DNA from: a virus
Taxonomy: Duplodnaviria > Caudoviricetes
Direction: 5' to 3' (one strand)
Virus record (IMG/VR): IMGVR_UViG_3300047672_000041
Span: 6,008 to 70,007 of that record
DNA length: 64,000 nucleotides
The notes beneath the pieces were generated by a model. It searched no databases, had not been told where the DNA came from, and saw nothing but the letters and a program-made list of their open reading frames with translations. This document shows positions 3,710 through 11,072 of the stretch, piece after piece (position 1 is the stretch's first letter; each line of letters begins with the position of its first letter). The position numbers and the translations under genes were made by a program.

Positions 3710-3827
3710 GGGGAGGTGGCCCTTCTGGTGGGGTCGTCGGCCGGTGCCCCGGCCGCGCGTGTCGTGCCTACCCGATGGGTGCGGCGGCGGCGCGCGGCGG
3801 GGTGCCGCGTCCGCTGACCGGGAGGGG

Positions 3828-4070
3828 TCAGGCGACGTCGGCCTCGACCCGGTCGGGGCGCGAGATGTCCTCGACCCGGCACCGCAGGGCCCGGGCGATG
3901 TCGCGGGCCATCCGGTCCGACGGCCAGCGGCGGCCCAGCGGCGGCCCGAGTTCGAGCACCTTCAGATACGACTCGGAGATGCCGGAGCGGTCGCGGAACT
4001 GGCGGCGGGTCATCCCCAGCGCCTCGCGCCGTGCCTTCACCTCGGCGCCGTCAAACTGTCGCGTCTTCAC
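3828..4070 (-). CDS. Cro-like XRE-family HTH regulator
   Basis: VKARREALGMTRRQFRDRSGISESYLKVLELG HTH; divergent from repressor; GTG 7 nt after CAAAAT. Confidence 0.85.
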   Translation of the reverse strand: MKTRQFDGAEVKARREALGMTRRQFRDRSGISESYLKVLELGPPLGRRWPSDRMARDIARALRCRVEDISRPDRVEADVA

Positions 4071-4233
4071 GGGGCCTATTTTGTCCTGTCGCCGACCGGG
4101 CCGCAACATCATCCCGCCCCCCCGACCGGACGATCCCGGAGGTCCGACGTCAGACAGGGAGGGTGCGCCCGGACACCCCCAGCCGCCGTCCGGTCGGTGG
4201 CGGGGCGTGACCGGAGGTGTCACGCTAGGCCAC

Positions 4234-4752
4234 GTGACGGGGACAAACGCCAGCAACGGCCACCGCGACCATCGTCGCGACCGCCGCCGCCCACTGCGCC
4301 CGGACGAGATCGCCTACCCGGCGGCCACCGTCCGGACCGCCCGCCAGCGCGCCCACCTCGAACAGGAGGACGTCGTGGCCCGGGTCGGGACGTCCATGCG
4401 GACCGTGACCCGCTGGGAGCGCGTCGGCGTGCCCTACCGCGCCCGCTACCTGGGCCGGGTCGAGGACGTCCTCGGGCTGGGCCCGTTCGCCGAGCGCGGC
4501 CCCGCCCCGGCCCCGGCGCGGCCCGCTCCGCCGGTGGCGCCGCCCGCCCTGCCGCCGCCGCGCCCCGATATCGGCGTGTTCACCATGGGGGAACTGCTCG
4601 GCGAGATCGCCCGCCGCCACGCCGCGCTGGAGGCCGGGCACCTCGCCCCGCCGACCGCGCCCGCCGCCGCCTACTACCGGTGGTCGCTCGCCGACGCCCC
4701 GTCCGCCCAGCTGGCCGACACGCCGGTCACCCATAGTTCCGACCGGGCCTGA
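4234..4752 (+). CDS. immunity repressor, XRE-family HTH
   Basis: VRTARQRAHLEQEDVVARVGTSMRTVTRWERVG; divergent from Cro-like gene; start inferred. Confidence 0.8.
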   Translation: MTGTNASNGHRDHRRDRRRPLRPDEIAYPAATVRTARQRAHLEQEDVVARVGTSMRTVTRWERVGVPYRARYLGRVEDVLGLGPFAERGPAPAPARPAPPVAPPALPPPRPDIGVFTMGELLGEIARRHAALEAGHLAPPTAPAAAYYRWSLADAPSAQLADTPVTHSSDRA

Positions 4753-4856
4753 TGCCGTAACGTCCGGATCCTCCCGCACCCGGCCCAGACCCCGCCGGTA
4801 GCACCTGTACCGCTGCTCGCTGCCCTTGGACAACCGGCACCCCTGGGGGACTGAAA

Positions 4857-5195
4857 GTGACCTCGCCGTCGCGGCATGCCCTACCGTCCCGACTCCCCGC
4901 CCTGACCGCCGCCGCGCGGCGCCTGCAGCTCGACCACGGCATCACCGTCGTCCCGACCGAGAATCTCCCGCCCGGCGTGCTGGGCGAGCTGGACCTGCCC
5001 GGCGGGGTCCTCACCGCCGACACCCGCGCCGCCGAGGGCGATCAGGCGTGGCTGTTGGCCGACGCGCTCGCGTTGCTCGCGGTCGGGGATGCCGCCAGCG
5101 CCGCGCACCCGGTCGCGGACCCGCCGCCGGTGCCGGTGCCGCTGCTCACGCTGGCCCGGCTCCCCGGCGGGCGGCACCCCTCCCGGGGCCGGTAG
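4857..5195 (+). CDS. ImmA/IrrE-like protein lacking HExxH
   Basis: ITVVPTENLPPGVLGELD...LLADALAL at the usual LAHEL.H position; directly after repressor. Confidence 0.5.
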   Translation: MTSPSRHALPSRLPALTAAARRLQLDHGITVVPTENLPPGVLGELDLPGGVLTADTRAAEGDQAWLLADALALLAVGDAASAAHPVADPPPVPVPLLTLARLPGGRHPSRGR

Positions 5196-5201
5196 CCGCG
5201 C

Positions 5202-5342
5202 CTAGGTGCGGGCCGCCACCGGATGGCAGGTCAACGCCGGACCGGCCGGGGCGAGCACCCGCTGCTCCCCGTACCCCGGGGAGCACCCGGCCACCGCCAC
5301 CGCCAGCAGCAGCAGCCCGAACAGGATCGCGGCGATCACCAT
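5202..5342 (-). CDS. small putative lipoprotein
   Basis: Hydrophobic signal plus lipobox VAG-C. Confidence 0.5.
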   Translation of the reverse strand: MVIAAILFGLLLLAVAVAGCSPGYGEQRVLAPAGPALTCHPVAART

Positions 5343-5377: not shown

Positions 5378-6340
5378 TCACCAGGGCACTATGCGGCGCA
5401 GCACCCCATCCAGGATCCGGGCCGGGTCCACCGTCGGTGGGTGGTACCCGTCGTACAGGTTGGCGGCCTCCAGCCAGCCCGGCTCGTCGGTCCGCAGCGC
5501 CAGGATCTGCCCGGCGATCATGTCCTGCTGCGGTAGCCGCCCCTCGGTCGGGTCGTAGGCCCTCGGGTGGCAGCACAGCCGCCCCCCGTAGTCCCCGTCC
5601 GGGTGATACCAGCGCACGTTCCCGTCGACGTGCCACGGGTCGACCTCGTACCGGGTGCCGTGCGACCCGACGACCGGGATCGGCGCGTTCCGGTCGAGCG
5701 CGCGGAGCTGGGCCGGGGACAGCAGCGACCGCAGCCCCGCGTCCGCCCGCGCGGCGGCCTTCTCCCGCGCCTCCAGCAGCCGCCGGGTCTCGGCCTGCAC
5801 CCGCGCGGCCCGGGCGCTGGCCTGCGCCGGGGTCTCCACCGGCGGCGCCGCCCGGGCGGCGGCGGCGAGCCCGCCCGCGCGCCACGCCGTCGGGGCGATC
5901 CCGGACCAGGCCGGGTCCTCGGGCGGCCGTCGCCGCCGGACGTGGCGCAGCACGTCCCGCCAGAACGGCGCCGCGTCCGGCCGCCAGTCGACCGTGATCC
6001 CGCCCGGCTCGAACACGACCGTCGTCCCCCGGTACGCCTCCGGGTCGGTGGTGCCGGTGGGGACGAGGGTGACCCGGCCCGTCCCGGCCAGGGTCGACAC
6101 CCCGTCGACGGTCCCCTCCCACCCCACGTCGTGGGTCGTCCGCCCGTCCCGCCCGTAGTGGGTCGAGAGGTGCAGCCGGGTCACCGCGAACCCCGGCACC
6201 GGGCGGTCCCCGTCGGCCACCAGCCGGGCCACCGCCTGCTCGACCATCGCGCCGAGCACCTGCTCCAGCGTGTCCGCGTCCAGGGTCGTCCCCGGCGGGT
6301 GAGCCACCATCACCTGCACCGGCGGCGGTGGCGGCGGCAA
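5378..6340 (-). CDS. hypothetical protein with C-terminal Cys-His domain (RLCCHP); partner of the Gly-Gly protein
   Basis: 320-aa ORF starting 3 nt after upstream stop; exact start uncertain. Confidence 0.75.
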   Translation of the reverse strand: MPPPPPPVQVMVAHPPGTTLDADTLEQVLGAMVEQAVARLVADGDRPVPGFAVTRLHLSTHYGRDGRTTHDVGWEGTVDGVSTLAGTGRVTLVPTGTTDPEAYRGTTVVFEPGGITVDWRPDAAPFWRDVLRHVRRRRPPEDPAWSGIAPTAWRAGGLAAAARAAPPVETPAQASARAARVQAETRRLLEAREKAAARADAGLRSLLSPAQLRALDRNAPIPVVGSHGTRYEVDPWHVDGNVRWYHPDGDYGGRLCCHPRAYDPTEGRLPQQDMIAGQILALRTDEPGWLEAANLYDGYHPPTVDPARILDGVLRRIVPW

Positions 6341-6343
6341 CGC

Positions 6344-6574
6344 TCAGCCGCCCTGGTGCTGCGGGGTCATCCACGTCTCCCGGGCCGCCGGGTCGAACGC
6401 GGTGACCTTCTCGAAGTCGTCCGGGCCGTTGACCGTGTACGCCAGGTACTTGGCGTCGGTCATCGCGGCGAACACCGCCTCGGCCTCGGCGATCGCGGCG
6501 GCGTCGTCGGTCCGCCACAGCGTCGTCGTGTCCCCGTGCCGGTCGTGTACGTGCAACGCATGCGTCTCGGCCAC
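6344..6574 (-). CDS. small protein with C-terminal di-glycine, predicted beta-grasp (ubiquitin-like)
   Basis: GAGGAG RBS plus GTG; 76 aa ending QHQGG-stop. Confidence 0.75.
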   Translation of the reverse strand: MAETHALHVHDRHGDTTTLWRTDDAAAIAEAEAVFAAMTDAKYLAYTVNGPDDFEKVTAFDPAARETWMTPQHQGG

Positions 6575-6821
6575 TTGCCGTCTCCTCGTCCCCGGTGATG
6601 TGTCAGGAATCCAGCCCGGCGACCCTAGCCGATCCCCCCGACAGGACGGCCCCACCCCGCCGGGCCCGGCGCCGAACGGGCCGCTACCGTGGATCCCGCC
6701 CGGGGATCACTGCACCTTCGCCCCGGGTCGGGCGCGGAGTGATGACCGCGTCTCGGTGAGGTCGAACTGCTGTGCGGCACGACTCGTGGGACCACTCCCG
6801 GTGGGGGTTCACCCACAGCGG

Positions 6822-7413: not shown

Positions 7414-7449
7414 AGCGCCGAGTCTACACGTCCAGTAGCCGCGTGTCTA
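7414..7449 (-). promoter_or_regulatory. TAGAC-class promoter 1 (TAGACA-N17-TAGACT)
   Basis: Near-identical to 57351-57386. Confidence 0.75.
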
Positions 7450-8055
7450 TCCGATGGCGAGTTGGAGCCAGTCGTGCACCGGTTCGTACATCCCCCCGAA
7501 GGGCGCGAACGCCGCATCCGCCTCGGCGAGGGACACCCACCGCACAGCGGTCAACTCGTCGGCGTCGCCGACGAACACGGCAGCATCCCCGACCGGCTCC
7601 CCCGCCACATAGATCATCGTGCGCAGCGTGCGCGGATGCACCCGCCGCCCCAGCTCCTGCACCGCCCGGACCCGTAGCCCCGACTCCTCCTTCACCTCGC
7701 GGACCATCGCGTCCAGCGCCGACTCCCCCGGCTCGATCTCGCCGGACAGGAACCCCGCCGGGGGCGACTTGTCCCGCCGCCACGTCACCAGCATTCGACC
7801 CTCGAACGTGACCACCGCCGCCACCACCGGCTGCGGCTCCGGCCGCCCCGCCTCCGCCTCCGCCTGACCCGCCACCCAACCGCTCCCTTTCTTCCGCAGC
7901 TGGCGCCGCAGCTCCGCCAGGTCCCACTTCAACCAGCCGCCCGGCGTCACCACCGCCGGGACCACCACCCCGTCCCGCGCCCACCGGGTCAGCGAGCGCC
8001 GCGACACCCCCAGAGTCCGCGCGGCCACCGCCGAACTCACCAGGTGATCGGTCAT
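7447..8055 (-). CDS. MerR/excisionase-type HTH fused to a NUDIX hydrolase
   Basis: AARTLGVSRRSLTRWARDG HTH; Nudix box GEIEPGESALDAMVREVKEESGL. Confidence 0.85.
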   Translation of the reverse strand: MTDHLVSSAVAARTLGVSRRSLTRWARDGVVVPAVVTPGGWLKWDLAELRRQLRKKGSGWVAGQAEAEAGRPEPQPVVAAVVTFEGRMLVTWRRDKSPPAGFLSGEIEPGESALDAMVREVKEESGLRVRAVQELGRRVHPRTLRTMIYVAGEPVGDAAVFVGDADELTAVRWVSLAEADAAFAPFGGMYEPVHDWLQLAIG

Positions 8056-8176
8056 GGCCGCGAGTGTCGCACCTGGCGCCGTCTGGCCGCACCTCACCCG
8101 TGTAGCCCTTCGCGGCCCGGCGCGGCTAATCTGACCCCTCTCGTCCCGACTGACCCGCCCCCTCACCGGAGGACCC

Positions 8177-8371
8177 GTGCTCACCCTCACCCGCTGCCGC
8201 GACTGCGGCCGACACGAACCCCAACCGCCCGTGACCGTCGTCGACGGCGACGGCGCGACCAGCGTGTCGTGCGCGCTGTGCGCGATGGCCGTGGTCGGCG
8301 ACGCCGCCGAGCCCGTCACCCTGGTCCTGGCCGCCGCCGCGACCGCCCCCCTCATCCGGAAGGACGCCTAG
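8177..8371 (+). CDS. small Zn-finger protein
   Basis: CRDC and CALC; GGAGG RBS. Confidence 0.65.
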   Translation: MLTLTRCRDCGRHEPQPPVTVVDGDGATSVSCALCAMAVVGDAAEPVTLVLAAAATAPLIRKDA

Positions 8372-9996: not shown

Positions 9997-10286
9997 GCGA
10001 CTGGGTCCTCGGCGGACTCCCCGCCCTGTCCATCACCGGGCTCACCCTGATGACCCTCATGGTCATCGGCGTCCCCGGCGCCGCAGCGGGGGGCGTCGCC
10101 TGCGCCGGGCTCGCCGCCGGGTTGGGCGCCGCCGGGGGGCTCCACGTCGTGCGCACCCGCCGCCCCCTCTGGCAGGCCGCCGCCGCCGCCCGCGCCCGCA
10201 TCCCGTTCGGGGCGTGGTGCTACCACTGCAAGGCCTGGACCGAGCACGAGCTGGCCACCGGCTGCACCGAATGCGGGCGACGATGA
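9993..10286 (+). CDS. membrane protein with C-terminal Zn ribbon
   Basis: 2 TM segments plus CYHC and CTEC. Confidence 0.65.
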   Translation: MSDWVLGGLPALSITGLTLMTLMVIGVPGAAAGGVACAGLAAGLGAAGGLHVVRTRRPLWQAAAAARARIPFGAWCYHCKAWTEHELATGCTECGRR

Positions 10287-10501
10287 TGCGCCGGGTCCGC
10301 CTCGTCGAGCCGTACTGGCACGACGTCGCCGAGGTCGGCGTCGTGGTCGAGCCCGCGCCCGGCGACGACCCGGAGCCTCGCTGCCTGGGCAAGGTCACGC
10401 CCGGCCGCTGGGTGCTGGTCGAGTGGCCCGCCCACCCGGACCGGGGGATCTCCGGCGCCCGGTTCTGGGAGCGCGCCGACGCGGTGCGGGAGCGACGATG
10501 A
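10283..10501 (+). CDS. hypothetical protein
   Basis: Coupled ORF MMRRVRLVEPYW... Confidence 0.55.
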   Translation: MMRRVRLVEPYWHDVAEVGVVVEPAPGDDPEPRCLGKVTPGRWVLVEWPAHPDRGISGARFWERADAVRERR

Positions 10502-10653
10502 CCGGCCCGGTCCTCGCCCTACTCGCGTTCGCGGGCGCCATGGTGTGGCTGTCGACCATCGCCCCCGGCGCAGCCAACGCAGCCATCGGCGCACTGCTGC
10601 TCGCGGGCTTCCTGGCGATCCTCGAAGCCGTGGACTGGGTGAGGGACCGATGA
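10498..10653 (+). CDS. small membrane protein (2 TM)
   Basis: Hydrophobic; coupled. Confidence 0.6.
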   Translation: MTGPVLALLAFAGAMVWLSTIAPGAANAAIGALLLAGFLAILEAVDWVRDR

Positions 10654-11072
10654 TCGCCGACAGCGTGATCCTGACCGTCTACCTCGCCGTCGCCGCCCTC
10701 GGCCTCCTCGCCGCCATCGGCGTCGTCGCCTACAGCCAGGCCCGGGAACGCGAAGGCGAACGCGGCCTACCCGACCCGCTGTTCGGCGACACCCTGGACG
10801 GGTCCGACATCATATCGGGCGCCCTCGCGGCGGCCATGTGGCCGGTCGCCCTCGTCGTCGGCGCGGTGTGGGCCGCCTACCGGGGGCTGGTCCGGCTCCT
10901 GCGGATCCGGGTCCGCGCCGGGCTGGCCGCGCGCCGCCAGGCAGCCGACCGGCAGCGCGAACGCGAGGCGGCCGAGGCGCAGAGCCGGGAGCTGCTCGAT
11001 CAGATCATCGCGGCCACCGGCGACCCGCACGAGCGCCACCAGCTCCGGATCGTCCGCGACGGCCTCCGGTGA
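10650..11072 (+). CDS. membrane protein (2 TM plus coiled coil)
   Basis: Hydrophobic segments; coupled. Confidence 0.65.
   Translation: MIADSVILTVYLAVAALGLLAAIGVVAYSQAREREGERGLPDPLFGDTLDGSDIISGALAAAMWPVALVVGAVWAAYRGLVRLLRIRVRAGLAARRQAADRQREREAAEAQSRELLDQIIAATGDPHERHQLRIVRDGLR

Follow-up and report, generated by a model that had tools for sequence, protein, structure and literature searches.

A small Gly-Gly protein and its Cys-His partner look like a minimal ubiquitin-style module carried by phages

To our knowledge, descriptions of tagging with ubiquitin-like (Ubl) proteins in prokaryotes have until now come from cells; most concern anti-phage defense, and all but E2-only CBASS involve an E1 enzyme. 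A gene pair near one end of a phage genome raises the question of whether phages themselves possess such machinery. In the stretch of DNA analyzed here (64,000 nucleotides; referred to as the window), an open reading frame (ORF) for a 76-residue protein ending in Gly-Gly is followed by a gene for a Cys-His protein, and the initial annotation of the window had read the two as a conjugation or deconjugation module, or as a decoy directed against host Ubl defense. Our analysis indicates that the pair looks like an apparently undescribed, minimal ubiquitin-style module for which no activating enzyme was found in these phages.

Phage setting and pairing of the two genes

The window represents bases 6008-70007 of a linear IMG/VR virus record of 70,007 bp (CheckV, 83%; 73% G+C), and its DNA was found again in several soil metagenome runs; no RNA run is listed among those that carry it. 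Genes for a terminase, a portal, an HK97-type capsid, a 1,614-aa tape measure and a GH25 lysin (minus strand) back its phage origin. At the left end of the window, divergent XRE-type HTH genes and a MerR-HTH/NUDIX fusion belong to a lysogeny and early region, and it is here, on the minus strand, that the two-gene module is located (Table 1). A gene for a MerR-type HTH domain fused to a NUDIX hydrolase is present upstream of the module both in the window (7447-8355, minus) and in the syntenic phage contig L002 (2241-2837). Judged by its match to the consensus, a promoter-like site facing the module could drive a leftward unit consisting of a 59-aa gene, a 108-aa gene, the Ubl gene and the partner gene. 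Since it combines a hydrophobic N-terminus with a lipobox-like A-V-A-G-C motif, a 46-aa ORF 35 nt downstream of the partner gene (5202-5342, minus) may encode a small prophage lipoprotein; this ORF is not conserved at the other loci.

Table 1. Coordinates of the module and of its associated features in the window
Feature	Position	Strand	Basis or remark
Gene for the 76-aa predicted beta-grasp protein (P0001); GTG start, stop TGA at 6346-6344	6344..6574	-	Translation, family alignment, AF2 model
Ribosome-binding site GAGGAG, 7 nt upstream of GTG	6582..6587	-	Read from sequence
Gly75-Gly76 codons (GGC GGC), stop directly after	6347..6352	-	Sequence; terminal GG invariant in 27/27 relatives
Promoter-like site (TAGACA, 17 nt, TAGACT)	7421..7449	-	Consensus match only; 1 found vs 0.0 expected in shuffles
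Partner gene (P0002), 320 aa from TTG 6340; database calls ATG 6310, 310 aa	5378..6340	-	Starts 3 nt after Ubl stop, same frame
Partner N-terminal domain, about residues 11-150, variable in family, common to P0006 and P0007 only	5891..6310	-	Homologue comparison
Ala/Arg/Glu-rich linker, probably helical, about residues 151-197	5750..5890	-	Charged Arg/Glu-rich stretch in all homologues
Conserved C-terminal Cys-His domain, residues 198-305	5426..5749	-	Common to 620 cluster representatives; predicted Ubl interface
Cys256-Cys257-His258 codons	5567..5575	-	Cys256 invariant, 257 usually Ala, His258 135/140; 256-260 in predicted interface

Conserved gene adjacency had been named as a point on which the initial proposal would depend, and it is borne out by all 18 loci that we compared (six reached through the partner, eleven through the small protein, and the window itself): the small gene is positioned directly upstream of the partner gene, whichever of the two served as the query. 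The gap between them was read in eight loci and ranges from -4 nt (an overlap) to +10 nt. At locus L004, an HNH_3 homing-endonuclease gene (10266-10943) is inserted exactly between the Ubl and the partner gene. The two reading frames coincide in the window, where they are parted by a TGA codon and one further codon (6338-6349, minus), and in locus L006, where TGA and two codons separate them (5458-5472); read-through of the stop codon would therefore yield a Ubl-partner fusion protein at these two loci. This same-frame layout is not conserved, and other loci possess ATGA overlaps.

The phages that carry the module (40-190 kb; 46-75% GC) are otherwise unrelated; it lies in their early or accessory regions, where genes for WhiB, ERF, RecA, HNH, integrase and HTH proteins are among its neighbors. 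Within 4 kb of the module, no third gene is shared between loci, except between two closely related phages. In the 106-kb phage that carries L006, the gene immediately upstream of the Ubl gene encodes an AAA-family ATPase (485 aa; 3711-5168); no other ATP-using neighbor was seen, and this one is not conserved at the other loci.

The small protein: family and predicted fold

Translation confirmed the 76-aa ORF reported by the initial annotation, with its strong ribosome-binding site and its QHQGG end, and the GTG start agrees with the N-terminus of the family in an alignment of relatives. Word-index searches with each single protein, small or partner, returned the query only. The family was reached through the partner homologue P0006, whose syntenic contig L002 carries an upstream gene that is clearly related to the small gene and whose product ends in Q-G-G; locus L003 provided the third case. 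A profile built from these three sequences retrieved 27 proteins, mostly of 71-77 aa (range 50-147). At about 30-40% identity, G75 and G76 are invariant in all 27 of these database relatives and are always the last two residues. In the 27-row alignment, the first hairpin carries a conserved D-x-x-G-D motif, and W20, L44, Y46, E55 and F60-D61 are conserved as well. Counted by locus, 16 of the 18 distinct loci end exactly in GG, so that the conservation of the terminal GG, a second point on which the earlier proposal hinged, holds. With the terminal GG found in 27/27 relatives and the adjacency in 18/18 loci, chance does not account for the observation on the small protein. The two remaining loci belong to low-GC phages whose proteins run past the conserved GG, one ending in AGGRTGG and one in AGGC (loci L021, about 4190-4225, and L022, about 4170-4204); by their sequence, these may be precursor forms that need trimming.

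Profile searches with the 27 members gave no match to Pfam ubiquitin, ThiS, MoaD, Prok_Ub or similar families at E <= 1, and the small protein has no family in PHROGs, NCBIfam or PADLOC and no meaningful match among PDB sequence profiles. Searches of cultured phages by tblastn and megablast with four queries yielded no match. A lead to phage Atu_ph07 from BFVD, a weak 18-bit hit within a 250-aa ORF that had no partner family, was dropped.

Predicted from the 27-row alignment by AlphaFold2 (pLDDT 89.1; pTM 0.77), the small protein consists of strands at residues 4-11 and 14-21, a helix at 25-40, and strands at 43-50, 53-57 and 66-71, followed by a tail (72-76) with the lowest confidence in the model. 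The strand and helix pattern that the initial annotation had read by hand agrees with this model almost element for element. A model made from the single sequence had a pLDDT of 64, resembled AcrIF9 and RbcS and showed no beta-grasp; it was superseded by the alignment-based one. Foldseek found no PDB match for the alignment-based model at E <= 0.001, and the top 50 are almost all beta-grasp domains. Among these is the RA domain of RalGDS (E 1.1e-2, probability 0.98, TM 0.43), and FAT10, ISG15, PB1, UBX, DIX, Hub1 and GB1 are represented as well. The predicted structure thus has the beta(2)-alpha-beta(2-3) core with a helix across a mixed sheet that defines the beta-grasp superfold, and it possesses the flexible C-terminal tail with Gly-Gly at the mature end that characterizes Ubl modifiers and sulfur carriers. 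The beta-grasp fold with a terminal GG had been postulated from the letters of the sequence; AlphaFold2 and Foldseek both point to this fold, and in the model the tail is free and flexible. We conclude that, as modeled, the small protein is a divergent beta-grasp protein that is no nearer to true modifiers than to other beta-grasp domains, and that its ubiquitin-like character stems from the Gly-Gly tail.

The Cys-His partner and its predicted complex with the small protein

For the partner we prefer the TTG codon at 6340 as the start (M-P-P...), because 88 of 140 homologues begin with Met/Val/Leu-Pro. The conserved proline, exposed once Met is removed, might matter functionally, or might only mirror the coupling sequence. 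An exhaustive phmmer search (E <= 1e-3) collected 620 cluster representatives, nearly all of which align only over partner residues ~175-305. A typical relative comprises about 220 aa and possesses a variable, often Thr/Ser-rich N-terminus, then a charged Arg/Glu-rich helix and then the conserved domain. In this domain, G225, G228, N241, C256, P270 and Q278 are present in 140 of 140 homologues, and S226, H258 (135/140), P259, D273 (137/140), L280, D285, E286 and A293 are nearly invariant. The partner Cys, whose conservation the initial annotation had asked about, is found in all of these homologues and at all 18 loci, phages of 46-51% GC included; at one of these loci (L015), Leu replaces His258. 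A fold other than beta-grasp, a terminal GG or a partner Cys that varied, or genes that did not co-occur would have spoken against the initial proposal; the GG, the Cys and the adjacency are all conserved, and the fold is predicted to be beta-grasp. The partner has no family in PHROGs or NCBIfam, nothing meaningful among PDB sequence profiles, and only unnamed clusters in the ESM Atlas.

The initial annotation had seen in the partner the spacing of an E2 active site, H-P-D-x7-C followed by C-x-H. The motif itself is present in the window protein (W-Y-H-P-D-G-D-Y-G-G-R-L-C-C-H-P; H246-P247-D248, seven residues, C256), but the E2 reading fails on the homologues: His occupies position 246 in few of them, Asp being the commonest residue (61/139), and P247 and D248 are each found in less than half (53/138 and 56/134). 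What is conserved in place of H-P-D is N241, a 15-residue spacing from it to C256, and H258-P259. Since H-P-D is not conserved, we judge the E2-like spacing to be due to chance, a caveat that had been voiced from the outset. A canonical E2 enzyme of the UBC type, recognizable from this spacing, would account for a spacing that exists in this single sequence and for an invariant Cys, but the partner has no HPN motif and no UQ_con or prokaryotic E2 profile match: among the 140 homologues no Pfam family was found (UQ_con included, E <= 0.1) and no PADLOC family, and UQ_con has no match anywhere in the 70-kb record. The canonical-E2 reading is thus contradicted at the motif level, and we reject it as hardly credible. 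Such E2-likeness as the partner may have comes from the order of its conserved blocks and from the modeled complex interface, both of which are compatible with a UBC fold.

A complex was predicted from partner residues 185-320, aligned in 140 rows, and the small protein, aligned in 27. It scored 0.85 in three runs versus 0.55 for the best of three controls; of 80 solved complexes 58 attain that mark, as do 2 of 110 mismatched pairs, counts that hold only roughly because our own alignments were used. Contacts agreed by at least 97% among the three runs, and the pLDDT of the partner chain was at least 91. The predicted interface is made up of partner residues 194-208, 239-240, 256-260 and 263-294 and of residues 8, 10-15, 41-56, 68 and the whole tail (70-76) of the small protein; therefore, most of the conserved residues of both families fall inside it. 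The face of the sheet used by the small protein matches the usual binding face of ubiquitin. In the closed E2~Ub conformation, the Ile44 face of ubiquitin packs against the helix that follows the catalytic Cys, and in RBR ligases the catalytic pair is a Cys-x-His. The complex model supports binding of the Ubl to the partner and is silent on a covalent bond.

Binding might be all that the pair does, the beta-grasp protein being a subunit dedicated to the Cys-His protein that regulates, inhibits or chaperones it; in one variant the subunit would be an antitoxin-like inhibitor that plugs the active site of a thiol hydrolase, its Gly-Gly kept to fit a narrow pocket. The obligate adjacency and tight coupling of the genes, the high-confidence predicted complex with the tail in a conserved pocket, the lack of a third conserved gene, and complete phage genomes with neither an E1 nor another energy source would all be expected of such a non-covalent pair. 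However, about 40 sequences that share 30-40% identity end exactly at GG, which is a signature of chemistry at the C-terminal carboxylate; a plug would be expected to accept other short tails, or extensions; and the variability of the partner's N-terminal domain speaks for a target outside the pair. We regard a purely non-covalent pair as rather unlikely.

The position of the tail at the Cys site in the complex model is also what a deubiquitinase-like Cys-His peptidase that cuts after Gly-Gly would show. Such an enzyme might mature or recycle the Ubl or, together with its own Ubl, hamper host Ubl immunity (Bil, Bub, type II CBASS). In the partner, a His lies close to the invariant Cys, an invariant Gln and an invariant Asn could form an oxyanion hole, and the two relatives with residues past GG (AGGC, AGGRTGG) would need trimming; moreover, the E2 of E2-only CBASS is a Cys-His protease that removes a residue after Gly (10.1101/2022.05.25.493364). 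Set against this, the proteins of 16/18 loci and 27/27 relatives are already at GG and thus leave nothing to cleave, the partner has no similarity to any Pfam peptidase family, and a Cys and a His two residues apart are unusual in papain-like enzymes. For a co-encoded Ubl as a decoy in counter-defense, we found no precedent in the literature. Both the deconjugation and the decoy role strike us as improbable.

Activation, mechanism and comparison with known systems

The remark of the initial annotation that no E1, JAB or ThiF gene is present in the window can be extended to the whole 70-kb record, in which neither ThiF (PF00899) nor Prok-JAB has a match. ThiF was likewise absent from 10 other module-bearing viral records (seven at least 90% complete, two with terminal repeats), and all control genomes matched; Prok-JAB had no match in five complete related records. 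No cognate E1 of the ThiF/MoeB type was thus found in the phage records searched. For the module itself, strict patterns derived from the alignments of its own families found no related loci in viral contigs (one pattern) or in species-representative genomes (two patterns), a result that leaves absence unproven.

We consider the best explanation, at a probability of roughly 40%, to be that a Ubl docks at a Cys-x-His thiol enzyme whose N-terminal domain picks the target and that a host enzyme provides activation. The two genes would form a self-contained, translationally coupled phage module, and the small protein would be a divergent beta-grasp protein that is made in its mature form, with the C-terminal Gly-Gly free and flexible. 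In the modeled complex, the beta-sheet face of the Ubl (residues 8, 44, 46, 48, 68, 70) would rest against partner helix 272-286 and its conserved D-x-x-G-D loop against D273, placing the tail (70-76) in the region of the invariant Cys256-x-His258-Pro. As a thiol enzyme, the partner might then form a thioester with the Ubl at Cys256 and hand the Ubl on in an E2/E3-like role, with N241 and D273 as putative catalytic helpers and His258 as a possible general base, and the variable N-terminal domain, carried on a charged helix, would select the target. Since a free carboxylate needs energy to form a thioester and these phages encode no E1, activation would come from an adenylating enzyme of the host of the MoeB/MoeZ/ThiF type. 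All covalent steps are what we infer, as are the target and the role that the module plays in biology (defense, counter-defense or host takeover).

Activation and transfer of the Ubl by the Cys-His partner alone, with no E1 at all, would be a new way to energize Ubl conjugation if true, and phages would use it to label proteins of the host or of rival phages that the variable N-terminal domain selects; we hold it to be highly improbable.

Dependence on a host E1 would also fit a sulfur-carrier pair, in which a ThiS/MoaD/CysO-like protein is converted to a thiocarboxylate by a host E1 and the partner thiolates either a nucleic acid or some metabolite through Cys256. It is common for several sulfur carriers to depend on a single host E1, as established for TtuC, MoeZ and UbaA, and in the MoaD-MoaE and CysO-CysM pairs the tail enters the active site of the partner. 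The beta-grasp fold, the free GG and the lack of a dedicated E1 are in line with such a pair, but the 27 members match no ThiS/MoaD profile at E <= 1, the partner falls into none of the MoaE, ThiG, PP-loop and rhodanese families, and a hypervariable N-terminal domain and the early/lysogeny gene position fit conflict better than metabolism. A role in sulfur transfer is quite improbable in our view.

If the module is indeed active, phages may use ubiquitin-style chemistry themselves, they may borrow a sulfur-carrier E1 of their host, or an unknown activation route may exist. The phages are uncultured, but the module is only about 1.2 kb long and has clear mutational targets (GG, C256, H258), so that it can be synthesized and tested directly. 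In the literature we came across no paper on a module of this kind in phages.

Among known systems, Bil consists of the Ubl BilA, the E2 BilB, the JAB peptidase BilC and the E1 BilD, and is, like the Bub operons, bacterial (10.1101/2023.09.26.559546; PMC11601596). Bil and Bub systems always include an E1 and a peptidase, whereas the phage module is made up of two genes, with neither an E1 nor a JAB found in those phage genomes that were searched; no sequence-profile similarity links them. Of the four-gene set that defines Bil (Ubl, E2, JAB, E1), the phage loci present only two conserved genes, and PADLOC gave no match.

Sulfur carriers such as ThiS, MoaD, CysO and TtuB resemble the small protein as beta-grasp proteins of about 70 aa with a free Gly-Gly; their tail inserts into a partner enzyme, and their E1 can be encoded elsewhere and shared. 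Unlike them, the small protein has no match to a PF02597-type profile, its partner is unrelated to MoaE, ThiG, CysM and TtuA, and the module is set in accessory regions of phages. In predicted shape, three unnamed ESM Atlas clusters (73-74 aa; 63, 79 and 285 members; Pseudomonadota, Uroviricota) are near-identical to the small protein (TM 0.87-0.92, rmsd 1.1 A over 73 residues), a comparison of shape only.

In E2-only (type II-short) CBASS, a Serratia cGAS operates with a stand-alone E2 (10.1101/2022.05.25.493364; PMC12948482), and energy for the thioester comes from cleaving the residue after Gly; the substrate is the CD-NTase and the enzyme has a UBC fold (10.1101/2022.05.25.493364). Like the phage module, this is an E1-less pair in which a Gly-bearing C-terminal tail is inserted at the Cys of a small enzyme for which a nearby His is needed too. 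The phage module differs in that its substrate is a 76-aa predicted beta-grasp protein that already ends in GG, and for this reason the CBASS-type energy route is closed to it, except in the one relative that ends in GGC; no CD-NTase was found among the neighbors of the module, which sets it apart from E2-only CBASS. Compared with all these systems, the novelty of the pair would lie in a ubiquitin-like machinery that is phage-borne, made of two genes and E1-less.
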